From an archaeon (lineage in GTDB: Archaea; SpSt-1190; DYHY01), in assembly GCA_043803745.1 (NCBI GenBank), contig JAZDJS010000046.1, positions 1-10,454 on the forward strand: a stretch of DNA of 10,454 bases, given 5' to 3'. The position numbers and the translations under genes were made by a program. This document shows positions 1 to 4,628 of this stretch, piece by piece; positions within the stretch are counted from its first letter, which is position 1; each line of letters starts with the position of its first letter. Under the pieces are notes generated by a model. It saw only the letters and a list, made by a program, of their open reading frames with translations, had not been told where the DNA came from and did no database searches.

Positions 1-429
1 GCGATATCTTACTCCAGTCGCGAATCCCCGGTCAATTAGCGCGGGTTTTTTCGCCAAGCCAATATCGACAAAGCCCGTGTTCTCAGTCAGGTTTTCCACT
101 TCAAGGCGGGAAGCGTCCGTCGGCGTGCCGTCATATTCCCCGAGCCGTTCTCCGAGAAGCGCCTGATAGAACTCGAGCTGGAGGGCAAGGTTTCCTTCAG
201 CCAAAAGCCGCGTGCCAGGATTCGCGAATCTTTCATCACCTTCCTCAACATAGGTGTTCTGGTAATTTGTCTTGAGTTTTCTCGCAGTTACCAAAAGTCC
301 CTCGGCGTCCGCCGATTCAAGCACATAACCCCATGTTTTCGCGCTTGCTACGGAAAAGAAGAGCGCGCCGTTCGGAGCCCGGATGTAGGTTATGCCCTCA
401 ATCGTTTCTTCAGTGAATTCCCCAGCCAT
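1..429 (-). CDS. Hypothetical protein, runs off the left window edge (at least 143 aa)
   Basis: Manual translation from the ATG at 429 is open to base 1: MAGEFTEETIEGITYIRAPNGALFFSVASAKTWGYVLESADAEGLLVTARKLKTNYQNTYVEEGDERFANPG...GFATGVRYR. It is missing from the ORF track because no stop is in the window. A TATA-like TTAAAAAA lies about 21-28 nt upstream. No family recognised. Confidence 0.75.
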   Translation of the reverse strand, partial: MAGEFTEETIEGITYIRAPNGALFFSVASAKTWGYVLESADAEGLLVTARKLKTNYQNTYVEEGDERFANPGTRLLAEGNLALQLEFYQALLGERLGEYDGTPTDASRLEVENLTENTGFVDIGLAKKPALIDRGFATGVRYR

Positions 430-490: not shown

Positions 491-937
491 CTACTGGACC
501 ATCGGGCTGACATAAACGTCGATTGCAACGAACGTTCCCTCGTCGGGCGCGCCCGTCTTGTCTTCCCAGCCGGTTGTTGCTAGCGTCACCCCGTATTTTT
601 CAGGGGGAAAGAACGCAGAAACGGCAGATGCGTATTTTCTGACGGTTCCGAAAACATCCTCCATCTCTTTGAGAATGGGGGTTATCCGGACAACCTCGAT
701 CCTTTCAGTTAGCTTGAGTTTGCCAGCGGCACCGACGAGCCGTTCGAATTCACGATATGCTTCCGCGGCAATCAGGGCCGGAGGCTCGTCAGGATATCCC
801 GTTACTGCGTTCATCCCCGGCTGGATTGTAAGAACTTCCATATTCTGCAATTCACCCTCCCCAAAATAAGCTTTCGGCGTTCTCGTAGTTATCATGACCA
901 CGCAGGAATGGGTTTTCTTTTTAAGAGTTCCTGCCAT
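491..937 (-). CDS. Divergent RidA/YjgF (Rid)-like protein, apparently lacking the catalytic Arg
   Basis: The C-terminal two thirds follow Rid motifs in order: EAYREFERLVGAAG (~QALENLKAILEAAG), EVVRITPILKEMEDVF (~DVVKVTVFLKDMNDF), SAFFPPEKYGVT (~AEFFPEPYPARS), GTFVAIDVYV (~GALVEIEAIA). The CDS is likely real; the family call is by eye. Confidence 0.55.
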   Translation of the reverse strand: MAGTLKKKTHSCVVMITTRTPKAYFGEGELQNMEVLTIQPGMNAVTGYPDEPPALIAAEAYREFERLVGAAGKLKLTERIEVVRITPILKEMEDVFGTVRKYASAVSAFFPPEKYGVTLATTGWEDKTGAPDEGTFVAIDVYVSPMVQ

Positions 938-1886: not shown

Positions 1887-2216
1887 CTACTTGGCCTGTG
1901 CAGGGGCGGCCTTCTTGTTCTTTCCTTCCTTTTCTTTCTGAACCTTTACCTTGCCCTCGGAGACCAGCATCGAAGCAGCGTCGCCATAGACAAGCGCCTG
2001 CCCGAAGGTCTTGTTGAGTCCGTATGTCGTGCGGAAACCGTTTATTGCGAGAAGATTCTCTTCCGCGCCAAGAAGGATCGAAAGCTTGCTCTTCAGTTCC
2101 GATCTTTTCGGAGTCGTGGACGCCCCGTGGCTGACCTCGAAATCAACAATCTTCCTTTTCAGGAGGGGTTCCTCAGCCGTTTTCAGTATCTTTATTTCTC
2201 CGTTCATTTCATTCAT
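1887..2216 (-). CDS. rps24e: 30S ribosomal protein S24e (eS24)
   Basis: PLLKRK..F...H....TP.R......L, T.YG...T.G.A.VY and a Lys-rich tail. GAGGA at 2217-2221 abuts the first ATG, so the Met at 2207 is the more likely start. Confidence 0.93.
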   Translation of the reverse strand: MNEMNGEIKILKTAEEPLLKRKIVDFEVSHGASTTPKRSELKSKLSILLGAEENLLAINGFRTTYGLNKTFGQALVYGDAASMLVSEGKVKVQKEKEGKNKKAAPAQAK

Positions 2217-2288: not shown

Positions 2289-2483
2289 CTACCGGACCCG
2301 TAGCGCGAACTCTCCCTTGACTTCGACGCCCATTTCCTTTGCAATCTGGGAGTTGGCCGGGTCGTATATTATCGCCATTCCCGCCCAGGTTGTCGTGAAA
2401 TCGTTTCCTCCGCATAGGGGGCAGGCGGTCCCGCGCGCGGAAACGACAATCCTGCAGTTCCTGCAAACCTTTTCCTGTACCAT
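2289..2483 (-). CDS. spt4: Transcription elongation factor Spt4 (RpoE'')
   Basis: CRNC...CPLCG zinc ribbon, T.W.G..II.DP..S.IA..M.....G.FALRVR; directly downstream of rpoE1. Confidence 0.96.
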   Translation of the reverse strand: MVQEKVCRNCRIVVSARGTACPLCGGNDFTTTWAGMAIIYDPANSQIAKEMGVEVKGEFALRVR

Positions 2484-2486
2484 GTC

Positions 2487-3053
2487 CTATTTCTTCTCCG
2501 TTCCGCCCTTCCGTTCCTCTTCGAGCCATTCGAACTTTCCAAGTCCCGGCTGCTTCATCGTGAGTCCTATTTTCGATGACGCGCTCTTCAGGCTTATCGT
2601 TACGAGGCGCGCCCGGACCCGGTCCCCGACCTTGAGGCTTTTCCCCCCCGTCTTTCCGGAGAGAACGCCCTCCTTCGAGAAGCTCATGAACTCGTCCGAT
2701 GCCTGGGAAACGTGCACAAGCCCGTCAAGGGGGCCTATCCGCACGAAAACCCCGAACTCGACAACCTCGATCACCTCGCCGTCGACAACCTCGTGGAGTT
2801 CCGGCTTGTAAACAAGCGCCTCGAAAAGCGTGTCATAGTAGACCGCGCCGTCTCCGGCAATTATGTTCCCGTCCGAGATTTCCTTGACGCTCGTCACACA
2901 GAGGATTATCCCCTTTTCCTTGTCCATCATCCCCTCAACGCCTTCCCGAAGCGCCTTTTTGACCGATTCCAGGGAGCTTTCCTCCAGGAACTTAGGCGGC
3001 ACCCGAACGCTTTCCTTCATTGTCACAATCTCATACATTTTCGCTGTATTCAT
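2487..3053 (-). CDS. rpoE1: DNA-directed RNA polymerase subunit E' (Rpo7)
   Basis: VRVPP, GDGAVYY, P..HEVV.GEV..V.EFG.FVRIGPLDGLVHVSQ, GD.VRAR, KIGLTMKQPGLGK.EW. The start is probably MY at 3038. Confidence 0.97.
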   Translation of the reverse strand: MNTAKMYEIVTMKESVRVPPKFLEESSLESVKKALREGVEGMMDKEKGIILCVTSVKEISDGNIIAGDGAVYYDTLFEALVYKPELHEVVDGEVIEVVEFGVFVRIGPLDGLVHVSQASDEFMSFSKEGVLSGKTGGKSLKVGDRVRARLVTISLKSASSKIGLTMKQPGLGKFEWLEEERKGGTEKK

Positions 3054-3609
3054 CCTCCAATTCTTCGGAACCGGCGGCTTCGGAGAGGACCTTCCTCCTA
3101 AAAACCTTGGTTCCGTGCATTATGACCTTTTTCGCCTCATTCTCATCCCCCCAGCCGATTATCTCGAAGGTCGTCCTTCCGCCAAGGGCCTCGCGGAAGG
3201 TTGTGAAGAAGTGGAAAAGTTCCTCCTGGATGTGCGGGGAAAGATCCCTCGCTGAGAAAACCTTCTCGTATTTCGGGTCCCCGAGCGGCACCGAGAGTAT
3301 TTTGTCGCTCCGCTTTTCGTCAGCGCCGAGAATCTTGAGGACGCCCACAGGGCGGGCGGGAATTACGCAGCCGGGAAAAGTCGGCTCGTCAACAAGAACG
3401 AGGGATTCGATTGGCCTCCCGCTGTCCCAGCAGGTTCTCGGGACGAATCCGCAGTCAGTCGGGTATGCCAGGGCCGAGAAAACGCCCTCAAGAACGGGAT
3501 GATCCCCCTCAAGGTTGAATCTCTGCCTGCCGCCCTTGAGAATTTCGACTACGACGTTTATATCCTCAGGCGGGTTTTTTCCGCAGGGCAATTCCTTCCA
3601 AAGACCCAT
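3031..3609 (-). CDS. ppa: Family I inorganic pyrophosphatase homologue with a degenerate active site (probable pseudo-enzyme)
   Basis: Scaffold motifs are intact (G.NPPEDINVVVEI, YP.D.GFVPRT, LVLVDEPTFPGCVI.ARPVGVLK, DKILSVP..DP, HFF, I.GW.D..EA), but the DGDPxD signature reads SGRPIE. It occupies the usual ppa position upstream of rpoE1. Confidence 0.88.
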   Translation of the reverse strand: MGLWKELPCGKNPPEDINVVVEILKGGRQRFNLEGDHPVLEGVFSALAYPTDCGFVPRTCWDSGRPIESLVLVDEPTFPGCVIPARPVGVLKILGADEKRSDKILSVPLGDPKYEKVFSARDLSPHIQEELFHFFTTFREALGGRTTFEIIGWGDENEAKKVIMHGTKVFRRKVLSEAAGSEELEDEYSENV

Positions 3610-3615
3610 TCTCAG

Positions 3616-3981
3616 TCAGTTTCCTCCGGAGATCACGAGCTTGCGCTTTCCCCTTAGGAAAAGATGCCTGAATTTTCCTTTAAAAGACTTTAGTTTTCTG
3701 ACGAGGGCAAAGTCCTGGGTGCCGACAACCAGCACCTCCCCCGAGGATTCGATGAGTTTCCCGATTTCCCGGTCAGCATAATGCGCTTCCCCCGGAAGCT
3801 GCTTACACCCGCCCTTCAGGAGATATTCCAGGACGGGCCCCTTCCCAAGCCGCACAAGTTCGTGCGCAACCGCAGAGGGGACGAGAATCTTTCCGGATGA
3901 AAGCTGCTTCAGCTCAATCAGGTCAAGCCTCTTGTATCTGAAAAGCTCGAGAACAAGCGAGGTATCGAGGATGAGCGTCAT
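3616..3981 (-). CDS. PIN-domain ribonuclease, Fcf1/Utp24-like
   Basis: The acidic tetrad is present: ILD6TS, V.HE41L, YAD70, TQD90..L.RKL, plus C-terminal FLRGKRKL. This family is commonly syntenic with aIF2-gamma and rpoE. Confidence 0.88.
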   Translation of the reverse strand: MTLILDTSLVLELFRYKRLDLIELKQLSSGKILVPSAVAHELVRLGKGPVLEYLLKGGCKQLPGEAHYADREIGKLIESSGEVLVVGTQDFALVRKLKSFKGKFRHLFLRGKRKLVISGGN

Positions 3982-4628
3982 TTCTCAAGTTCCAGCCGCA
4001 GGACTCCGCCCGAAAAGCTTTTCCCGACAATGTGCGCCTCGGAAGGGATTGCGATTATCTTGAAATATCCCTGTTCCTTCCCGTATGCGCGGACTTCGAT
4101 CGAACTCTCCATTTTCGCGATTTCAACATCCCGGATTGACGATATCTTCGGAAGGTTCATCTCAACCACGACCCGCGCACCCTCGCTCGTGACCTTTGTC
4201 TGGGGCTCGGAGAAGCTTTTCGGGGCCGCCTTTTGAACCCCTTTCGGGGCGCCGCCCCTGCCGGGATTGAGCGCTCTTGTCCCCGGGCTCCCGCCAACCT
4301 CAAGCCCCTGCGCCTGAAGACTCCTTTCGACATCCTCAGGCCTGACGTTCCCGAATGTCTTTATCTCGACCGCAGGCTTTTCCCCGCCGCTTTTCCTGGT
4401 TATTTTCACCGAAAACCCGCCGGCGTTATGTGAGAACATCGGGGTCGCGTCGAAAGCCTCGAAATTGTGGTTCTGCATCGGCGCCCTCGCCATCCGCCGA
4501 ATCCGTTCGTTGAACTCGCTTATGAACTCGCTGAAGAAATCCGTGTAAAGCTCCTCCCCGCAGCCCGGGCAGAACTTCCAGGATGAATCGACGATTTCCC
4601 CGCAGTTGACACACCTTCTTGCAGCCAT
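3978..4628 (-). CDS. Zinc-ribbon plus archaeal Hsp20/alpha-crystallin domain fusion protein
   Basis: N-terminal CVNCG...WKFCPGCG; Phe-rich helix; GFSVKI....KP.VEIKTFGNV as in archaeal Hsp20 N-regions; Gly/Pro linker; alpha-crystallin-like EP.TKV...VVVEMNLP.I...DVEI...SIEVRA...YFKII.IP...FSGGVL.LEL.K. Confidence 0.8.
   Translation of the reverse strand: MAARRCVNCGEIVDSSWKFCPGCGEELYTDFFSEFISEFNERIRRMARAPMQNHNFEAFDATPMFSHNAGGFSVKITRKSGGEKPAVEIKTFGNVRPEDVERSLQAQGLEVGGSPGTRALNPGRGGAPKGVQKAAPKSFSEPQTKVTSEGARVVVEMNLPKISSIRDVEIAKMESSIEVRAYGKEQGYFKIIAIPSEAHIVGKSFSGGVLRLELEK

Follow-up and report, generated by a model that had tools for sequence, protein, structure and literature searches.

What is an archaeal gene for an inorganic pyrophosphatase (PPase) for, once the catalytic centre of its product has been taken apart? 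This question is raised by a stretch of DNA of 10,454 nucleotides (contig JAZDJS010000046.1 of assembly GCA_043803745.1, from an archaeon with the lineage SpSt-1190; DYHY01), which was analysed over its whole length and is called the window below. On its minus strand, at 3031..3609, it carries an uninterrupted open reading frame (ORF) of 192 amino acids plus stop that starts with ATG and lies directly upstream of rpoE′, the gene for Rpo7. Family-I PPases are a textbook case of an invariant active site, and the product of this ORF has their fold with a dismantled catalytic centre. Our best explanation is that it is a pseudo-enzyme kept by selection, with a remodelled, non-hydrolytic binding pocket, and we put the probability of this explanation as a whole at roughly 0.6. 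Taken by itself, the part that concerns the pseudo-enzyme is highly probable, while the part that concerns ligand binding is put forward as a tentative suggestion from the residues of the pocket.

There is little doubt about the family to which the protein belongs. The Pfam profile PF00719 matches the ORF over nearly its full length and well above the gathering score (E 1.1e-27; 97.1 bits with a cut-off of 23.5; residues 19-168 aligned with positions 1-150 of the 153 in the profile), and a whole-genome search returned the same ORF at 97.4 bits. Among the sequences of the PDB, phmmer matched 38 distinct PPase sequences, the best being that of 3i98 from Thermococcus thioreducens (E 1.6e-28). An AlphaFold2 model of the product, based on an alignment of 65 rows, has a mean predicted local distance difference test score (pLDDT) of 92.9 and a predicted template-modelling score (pTM) of 0.87, and low confidence is limited to the last ~20 residues (pLDDT 62 and 49 for the two C-terminal blocks). 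The predicted structure is the twisted β-barrel with two flanking helices, and Foldseek superposes it on the T. thioreducens PPase (3i98/3q5v) with template-modelling (TM) scores of 0.84/0.92 and a root-mean-square deviation of 1.5-1.6 Å. All of the top 50 Foldseek matches in the PDB are PPases (TM up to 0.86/0.92), including those from Pyrococcus, Sulfolobus and Escherichia coli. In the ESM Atlas, only generic PPase clusters were found, and the structure of the PPase-like protein itself is absent there. Because the sequence matches, the confident model and the superposition agree, we regard the scaffold as intact. The protein thus shares the Pfam family, the fold and the length class with canonical archaeal family-I PPases (T. 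thioreducens 3i98/3q46, Pyrococcus horikoshii 1ude), and it is 32% identical to the T. thioreducens enzyme.

The catalytic centre presents a different picture. We compared 15 positions that we take to be the catalytic ones, in E. coli numbering E20, K29, E31, D42, R43, Y51, Y55, D65, D67, D70, D97, D102, K104, Y141 and K142. The residues were mapped with three alignments, namely phmmer to 3i98, MAFFT L-INS-i together with archaeal PPases, and BLASTP to Ppa of E. coli K-12, whose sequence was taken from the annotated genome. The choice of positions is partially supported by the E. coli PPase mutants D42N, D65N, D70N and D97N among the PDB entries, and a review (PMC11210485) lends it further partial support, in that yeast D115, D120, D152, Y93 and K56 are called catalytic there. 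In the ORF product, E20 is retained as E22, Y51 as Y49 and K104 as K103. By contrast, K29 is replaced by R30, E31 by N32, Y55 by C53, D65 by S63, D67 by R65, D70 by E68, Y141 and K142 by F138 and R139, and D42 and R43 by E41 and G42 in a hairpin that is shortened by two small deletions. The archaeal canonical sequence RNKYE around K29 and E31 accordingly reads RQRFN (residues 28-32, minus strand 3514..3528). Where the DGDPxD signature for metal binding and the general base would stand, all three alignments place S63-G-R65-P-I-E68 (SGRPIE, residues 63-68, minus strand 3406..3423), and the D-x-D-P-x-D metal-binding pattern does not match the ORF.

Two positions depend on how a single loop is aligned. 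Residues 95-103 (GADEKRSDK, minus strand 3301..3327) form a remodelled loop with an insertion of one residue, and because of this insertion the equivalent of D97 is ambiguous: it is G95 in the phmmer alignment to 3i98, A96 in the L-INS-i alignment, and D97 of the query itself in an alignment of 259 homologues and in BLASTP to E. coli. D97 may therefore be retained. A first-pass annotation of this DNA, made from the letters alone, had assigned G95 to this position, and its hand alignment to E. coli Ppa agrees with our map everywhere else; for D97, the phmmer alignment gives the same residue and the others do not. As to D102, BLASTP to E. coli sets D102 of the query opposite D102 of the enzyme at the cost of a gap, whereas L-INS-i pairs D102-D103-K104 of the archaeal PPases with S101-D102-K103 of the query gap-free. 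For this reason S101 is the likelier, more parsimonious equivalent of the catalytic aspartate, as the hand alignment had it.

Depending on this loop, 11-12 of the 15 catalytic positions differ between the ORF and the canonical archaeal enzymes. Of 259 aligned homologues of 150-240 residues, 183 have all 15 canonical residues, while the query has four in the same alignment and three in a second one, which was used for the careful tree; with three or four identities it thus lacks the active-site constellation. It also remains below the cut-off of the NCBIfam equivalog NF002317 (96 bits versus 200). This last result is weak on its own, because the canonical second copy in the genome of the sister species (G001) likewise scores under that cut-off (175.4 bits). 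A member of the PPase fold family without the defining features of the enzyme is also what the first-pass annotation had described, and the Pfam match, the superposition and the three alignments bear it out.

What would such a centre still be able to do? In canonical PPases, D67 is the general base that activates the nucleophilic water, and R43 and the tyrosine hydroxyls contact pyrophosphate (PPi). Since two ligands of the first metal site are replaced by serine, and the water-activating aspartate, E31 and R43 are gone, the canonical multi-metal mechanism is very unlikely to operate in the ORF product. This judgement leans on established PPase enzymology, and the geometry and electrostatics of the pocket are taken from homology mapping. 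Retained are the basic positions of the phosphate clamp, R30, K103 and R139, and a further basic residue is added at position 65 in place of the metals. It could nonetheless be argued that the protein is still an enzyme, be it a PPase with an altered, for instance single-metal or metal-free, mechanism, or a hydrolase of other phosphoanhydrides or phosphoesters. Its pocket is strongly conserved, several carboxylates remain next to the three basic clamps, and D97 is possibly among them. Against this stands that both M1 ligands apart from D70 are replaced, and that the general-base aspartate has given way to arginine or lysine; the genomic distribution discussed below adds to these objections. 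A cysteine-based phosphatase motif at C53 was considered as well and rejected, as the spacing is CX4R rather than CX5R and R58 is glutamine in two of the five members of the clade described next. A cysteine at the position of C53 is moreover seen in PPases that are canonical in other respects (pattern EKEDRYCDDDDDKYK, two rows of the 259-homologue alignment).

Orthologues of the protein are few. A search of 5.8 billion clustered proteins found four further proteins (P0002-P0005) at 68-78% identity, from two genera, after which the matches fall to 136 bits and 37-39% identity. Exhaustive HMMER over 1.84 billion 50%-representatives gave one representative of this clade, P0004, followed only by matches that are multi-domain or at most 45% identical. 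Neither of two scans of contigs added a relative: a scan of metagenome contigs with the clade alignment yielded 594 pattern stretches, none of which encodes one, and a scan of genome contigs with the single protein, in a set from which records near the genome of the window may be excluded, returned only canonical PPases of at most 44% identity.

All five clade members carry the same replacements. In the first motif, R28, R30, F31 and N32 are invariant and position 29 is glutamine or phenylalanine; in the second, S63, P66, I67 and E68 are invariant, with glycine or glutamate at position 64 and arginine or lysine at position 65; in the loop, G95 and E98-K103 do not vary, which includes K99-R100; and position 139 is arginine or lysine throughout. 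Of the 192 columns, 90 are invariant across the two genera. The ex-catalytic positions are more invariant (12-13 of 15) than the other core positions (77-78 of 160; Fisher one-sided p 0.018 and 0.004), a comparison which, with five related sequences, is indicative and no strict test. Nucleotide sequences are available for three genomes of the clade, that of the window (G000), that of its sister species (G001) and G003. Among these, nonsynonymous divergence (dN) is 0.185-0.291, synonymous divergence (dS) is 2.1 or, being saturated, not computable, and omega is 0.11 where it can be computed. The dN values are similar to those of Spt4 (0.14-0.23), above those of Rpo7 (0.11-0.16) and below those of S24e, the PIN-like protein and the zinc-ribbon protein of the same locus. 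In trees, the clade is fully supported, with a stem of 0.94-0.97 changes per site and internal branches of 0.09-0.28, a pattern of rapid early change and later constraint.

Because the same replacements are found in two genera, dN is low while dS is saturated, and the ex-catalytic positions vary less than the others, we conclude that the gene is not decaying and that its degenerate state is kept by purifying selection, as the first-pass annotation had suspected from the intact scaffold. The protein thus shows both the loss of essential residues and the purifying selection after that loss which mark a pseudo-enzyme. The time of the loss can be bracketed with Rpo7, whose identity to that of G000 is 85% in G001, 78% in G003, 67% in the sister genus (G002) and 61% in the sister family (G004). 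Since G002 falls outside the two genera with the degenerate form by this measure, the loss of the catalytic centre dates to their common stem.

These data also bear on the view that the ORF is a functionless relic, either a recent pseudogene or a frame that is open only to preserve translation or transcription of rpoE′. Its stop codon does overlap the start of Rpo7, and the close relatives G002 and G004 are canonical. The first-pass annotation had named canonical relatives in combination with neutral evolution as the mark of a recent pseudogene; the relatives are as it foresaw, but the ORF does not evolve neutrally. With omega at 0.11 or less and 69-78% identity across two genera, with replaced residues that are themselves invariant, and with a predicted fold that is intact at high confidence, a relic is already disfavoured, the more so since genomes of the small-genome family f3 of the same phylum have no PPase gene beside Rpo7, so that the operon does not need one. 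We consider this view very improbable.

If the protein is not a PPase, one may ask how PPi is removed in these cells. The first-pass annotation had called for a search for another PPase in the genome. Whole-genome profile searches of G000 returned no other PF00719 match and no DHHA2 match, and they did return a membrane H+-PPase (871 bits, in an open frame of 695 amino acids). We then surveyed all 17 species genomes of the phylum (G000-G016, 72-99% complete) with the PF00719 and H+-PPase models. A soluble PPase of at least 175 bits is present in nine of them, namely G001 (the second copy), G004, six genomes of family f3, and G002, in which a fragment at a contig end was counted as canonical. 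The other eight (G000, G003, G006, G008 and four f3 genomes) have an H+-PPase. A full-scoring soluble PPase and an H+-PPase are mutually exclusive, in that every genome has one of the two and not a single one combines them. Low-scoring PF00719 copies are found in G000 (97 bits), G001 (103), G003 (106), and G006 and G008 (126 each), and each of these five genomes has another PPi hydrolase, which is a canonical soluble PPase in G001 and an H+-PPase in the other four. By their distribution, the degenerate copies therefore do not count as a soluble PPase. This distribution, the second hydrolase in all five genomes, and the fact that G001 keeps a canonical copy beside the degenerate one all speak against a remaining enzymatic activity, which we hold to be improbable.

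In this context, the proposal of the first-pass annotation that the protein serves an active PPase oligomer as regulatory subunit can be addressed. A regulatory or structural subunit in a hetero-oligomer with an active family-I PPase would fit the presence of a degenerate and a canonical copy in G001, and family-I PPases are described as homo-oligomers in PMC11210485. However, no canonical family-I PPase was found in G000 or G003, and both keep the degenerate gene under selection regardless. As a general role the proposal does not stand, and we give it hardly any weight.

It is plausible that the driver of the loss was energetic, since hydrolysis by a soluble PPase is a waste of PPi in cells that power an H+-PPase with it. 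In G001, however, the degenerate gene persists next to a canonical soluble PPase and no H+-PPase was detected, so the retained role is not tied to the H+-PPase.

Several features of these PPi hydrolases were seen in passing. The split between soluble PPase and H+-PPase in family f3 runs between genera. The canonical second PPase of G001 (G001:C13:185-721, locus L023) groups in the careful tree with proteins of distant archaea (P0143, G019; support 97/85*) and apart from the syntenic copies of its own order, and was probably acquired or is an old paralogue. In G006, one of two tandem H+-PPase genes (G006:C9:113557-116022) has a profile match that is split in two (1-601 and 602-645), with the parts ~320 nt apart within one open frame of 938 amino acids, which suggests an in-frame insertion of ~100 residues near the C-terminus, possibly a mini-intein or an extra domain. 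Finally, a PPDK_N match in G000 (frame of 832 amino acids) was not used, since pyruvate phosphate dikinase and phosphoenolpyruvate synthase are indistinguishable at this level.

A second hallmark of the clade is the acidic C-terminal tail of about 18 residues, which canonical archaeal PPases lack. In the window it comprises residues 175-192 (LSEAAGSEELEDEYSENV; minus strand 3034..3087), which the model predicts with low confidence, and it is probably flexible. That the tail overlaps the start of rpoE′, as had been pointed out from the sequence at the outset, is real, the overlap being 8 nt when counted from the methionine of MYEIV, where the orthologues start, and 23 nt if the Rpo7 ORF is taken to begin at its first ATG. 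In the L-INS-i alignment, all five clade members have such tails, of 14-23 residues and with a net charge of -2 to -7 (computed for four members and counted by hand for the protein of the window). None of the 11 other aligned sequences has one, though P0134 ends in a shorter EEE.

Taken together, we envisage the following course of events for the selected pseudo-enzyme. In an ancestor of the two genera, the metal ligands D65 and D102 would have changed to serine and the general base D67 to arginine or lysine, while E31 became asparagine, R43 was lost, and Y55 and Y141 were stripped of their hydroxyls. Purifying selection then froze the new state, and PPi is hydrolysed by the membrane H+-PPase, or by an additional soluble PPase of canonical type in one of the species. 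The protein retained the PPase fold and the basic clamps R30, K103 and R139, gained a basic side chain at the site of two metals, and acquired the acidic tail. We infer that it no longer hydrolyses PPi. Its pocket may instead bind, in a metal-free manner and with no turnover, either an acidic peptide or an anionic ligand that bears phosphate (PPi, inorganic phosphate or a nucleotide), and the protein would therefore act as a sensor or adaptor for the co-transcribed transcription/translation module, with the tail as an intramolecular lid or as an element that recruits a partner. A non-hydrolytic binding role is favoured because the basic clamps, the arginine or lysine at position 65, K99-R100 and the acidic tail are all conserved.

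A number of points weigh against this explanation. Single conservative substitutions in E. coli PPase at the positions concerned leave some residual activity, and the inactivity of the ORF product is deduced from the combination of changes. Carboxylates remain at E22, E41, E68, D97/E98 and D102, D97 itself may survive, and one metal site may still be formed. The loss of R43 and of two tyrosine hydroxyls argues against tight binding of PPi, and a physical tie of the protein to RNA polymerase, to the PIN-like protein or to any ligand is hypothetical. Furthermore, the clade consists of five sequences only, and G000 is 90% complete, such that a canonical soluble PPase could lie in its unassembled part. 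The 17 genomes are related to one another, and perhaps three or four independent events underlie the exclusivity of the two types of PPi hydrolase. Finally, the four f3 genomes with an H+-PPase are without any PF00719 gene, which means that retention of a degenerate copy is not the general outcome.

The neighbourhood of the gene was examined as well. The PPase-like gene lies in a minus-strand array that runs from S6e and aIF2-gamma through two glycosyltransferase ORFs, two EamA transporters, a zinc-ribbon/Hsp20-like gene and a PIN-like gene to the PPase-like gene itself, and on to Rpo7, Spt4, S24e and a methyltransferase. Immediately upstream, 6 nt before the PPase-like start, ends the weak PIN-like ORF (3616..3981, minus strand), which scores below the cut-offs for PIN_9 (23.3 bits) and PIN (19.3 bits) and has no NCBIfam match. 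It is preceded by a zinc-ribbon protein (3978..4628, minus strand; Zn_ribbon_3, 32.2 bits) with a weakly Hsp20-like C-terminal half (NF041800, 34.1 bits versus a cut-off of 140). Downstream follow rpoE′/Rpo7 (2487..3053, minus strand; SHS2 and S1 domains, PF03876 and PF00575), whose likely start is the ATG at 3038 given that its orthologues begin with MYEIV or MHEIV, then Spt4/RpoE″ (2289..2483, minus strand; PF06093, 48.1 bits) and ribosomal protein S24e (1887..2216, minus strand; PF01282, 63.3 bits), a downstream member of the co-directional array. From the zinc-ribbon gene to the methyltransferase gene, the order is identical in G001 and G003.

The first-pass annotation had placed the gene inside a PIN-rpoE-spt4 operon. 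This location does not amount to a new recruitment. A PPase gene abuts Rpo7/Spt4 in 10 of 21 loci of relatives, often right after aIF2-gamma, and canonical PPases abut Rpo7 in G004, which belongs to the same taxonomic order (pattern ENEDRYYDDDDDKYK), in G029, G018, G021 and G022, distant archaea included, and at locus L015, the product of which starts like the 3i98 chain. The fragment of a PPase gene at the contig end in G002 likewise has a canonical C-terminus (FFRTYKELEGK) and no acidic tail. The PPase-like gene thus is the positional orthologue of the canonical ppa gene, and its place beside rpoE′/spt4 is ancestral. Literature searches on the archaeal gene cluster, on PPases of Undinarchaeota and on residue roles in family I found nothing usable.

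The neighbourhood also invites another account, in which the protein is purely an adaptor or scaffold for other proteins. Its fold and tail would recruit or mimic a partner, for which the RNA-polymerase stalk Rpo4/7, Spt4/5, the PIN protein or a factor of the small ribosomal subunit are candidates, and the pocket would be conserved for stability only. The tight co-directional array in which the gene starts 6 nt after PIN and ends within the start of Rpo7, the gene order shared by G001 and G003, the restriction of the acidic tail to the clade, and a basic tail at the end of the Rpo7 orthologues would all suit such a role. On the other hand, canonical PPases without a tail adjoin Rpo7 too, so the neighbourhood alone does not imply binding, and the basic Rpo7 tail is shared by G002 and G004, which have canonical PPases. 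The greater invariance of the ex-catalytic pocket would moreover be unexpected if stability alone mattered. Co-folding of Rpo7 with the PPase-like protein scored 0.00 (mark 0.32) in a run without controls, which weighs neither way on binding. We judge the adaptor account unlikely, but it is the alternative to which we give the most weight.

Within the preferred explanation of a pseudo-enzyme with a binding pocket, a more specific and rather doubtful idea is that the protein is a non-hydrolysing sensor of PPi or phosphate which, made in stoichiometry with Rpo7 and Spt4, reports the level of cytosolic PPi to the transcription and translation apparatus. In cells where PPi is the energy currency for the H+-PPase, the signal would be passed on through the remodelled basic pocket and the acidic tail. 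Were this so, the protein would be the first regulator of archaeal gene expression with a PPase fold, and such a sensor would account for the linkage of ppa to rpoE′/spt4 across Archaea. A precedent for a PPase fold as subunit of a transcription-related assembly exists in eukaryotes. In the chromatin remodeller NURF of Drosophila, the inorganic pyrophosphatase is the subunit NURF-38, in which the catalytic residues are preserved and which is an active enzyme. For the PPase-like protein, a physical link to RNA polymerase is hypothetical.

Similar but apparently independent degenerations of family-I PPases exist elsewhere. One parallel is the P0126 cluster, partly degenerate homologues in a large-genome family (f4) of the same phylum, which are encoded between aIF2-gamma and Rpo7; at NCBI, the cluster carries the labels "Candidatus Undinarchaeales archaeon" and "Methanopyri archaeon" and is annotated as inorganic diphosphatase. 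P0126 resembles the ORF product in its low Pfam score (126 bits), in the co-occurrence of an H+-PPase and in an R-S-D motif in the D102 loop, and it differs in keeping K29, E31, Y55 and D70 and in lacking the acidic tail. Its changes concern D42/R43, Y51, D65, D67 (to glutamate), D97, D102, K104 and Y141/K142 (pattern EKETTHYNEDTSTQS). Because it groups with the canonical protein of G004 rather than with the clade once the catalytic columns are removed, its loss probably occurred independently. Four scattered proteins, P0125 (labelled Candidatus Aenigmarchaeota archaeon), P0134, P0154 and P0244, are single-domain PPase folds that are 33-38% identical to the ORF product and have 8-11 of the 15 positions changed, and a basic residue recurs at D67 or D70 in them as it does in the ORF. 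For one named protein in the P0125 cluster, the annotation reads inorganic diphosphatase. A search with P0125 in the 17 genomes of the phylum found no closer relative (best 46% identity). A wider degenerate clade with these four, which a quick tree had proposed (support 96*), was rejected, since it is gone when the catalytic columns and the loop are left out.

Literature searches for "inorganic pyrophosphatase" pseudoenzymes and for catalytically inactive family-I homologues found no paper, and the terms "inactive" and "non-catalytic" are absent from the accessible part of PMC11210485. The clade provides a clear-cut natural case of a PPase fold that stays under selection after its chemistry has been removed, with an origin that can be dated within one archaeal family. 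It also has a practical side. Low-scoring PF00719 homologues are named "inorganic pyrophosphatase" or "inorganic diphosphatase" by the sources, and metabolic reconstructions of these small archaea would wrongly credit such copies as soluble PPase. Furthermore, the case lets one ask whether the widespread linkage of ppa and rpoE′ means more than the removal of PPi.

Some further observations concern other PPases and the rest of the window. The canonical, syntenic PPase of G004 (G004:C2:157022-157543, locus L008) deviates at one catalytic position, K29, which is asparagine (SRNNYE), and scores 175.6 bits versus 204-212 for the other canonical copies in the phylum. P0121, P0122 and P0132 (620-650 amino acids) each consist of three tandem family-I PPase domains followed by a coiled-coil-like C-terminus, and one domain in each has lost signature aspartates (e.g., EDGKPVD or EDREEMN for DGDPxD). 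In the window itself, an ORF of 148 amino acids (491-937, minus strand) and an open-ended one of 143 amino acids (1-429, minus strand) did not match Pfam at the thresholds applied. The segment 4629-8235 (minus strand) holds the two tandem EamA transporter genes, a glycosyltransferase gene of family GT4 and an ORF of 200 amino acids with a sub-threshold Glyco_transf_4 match, and these genes sit between aIF2-gamma and the PIN/rpoE′ block of an otherwise conserved information-processing cluster.

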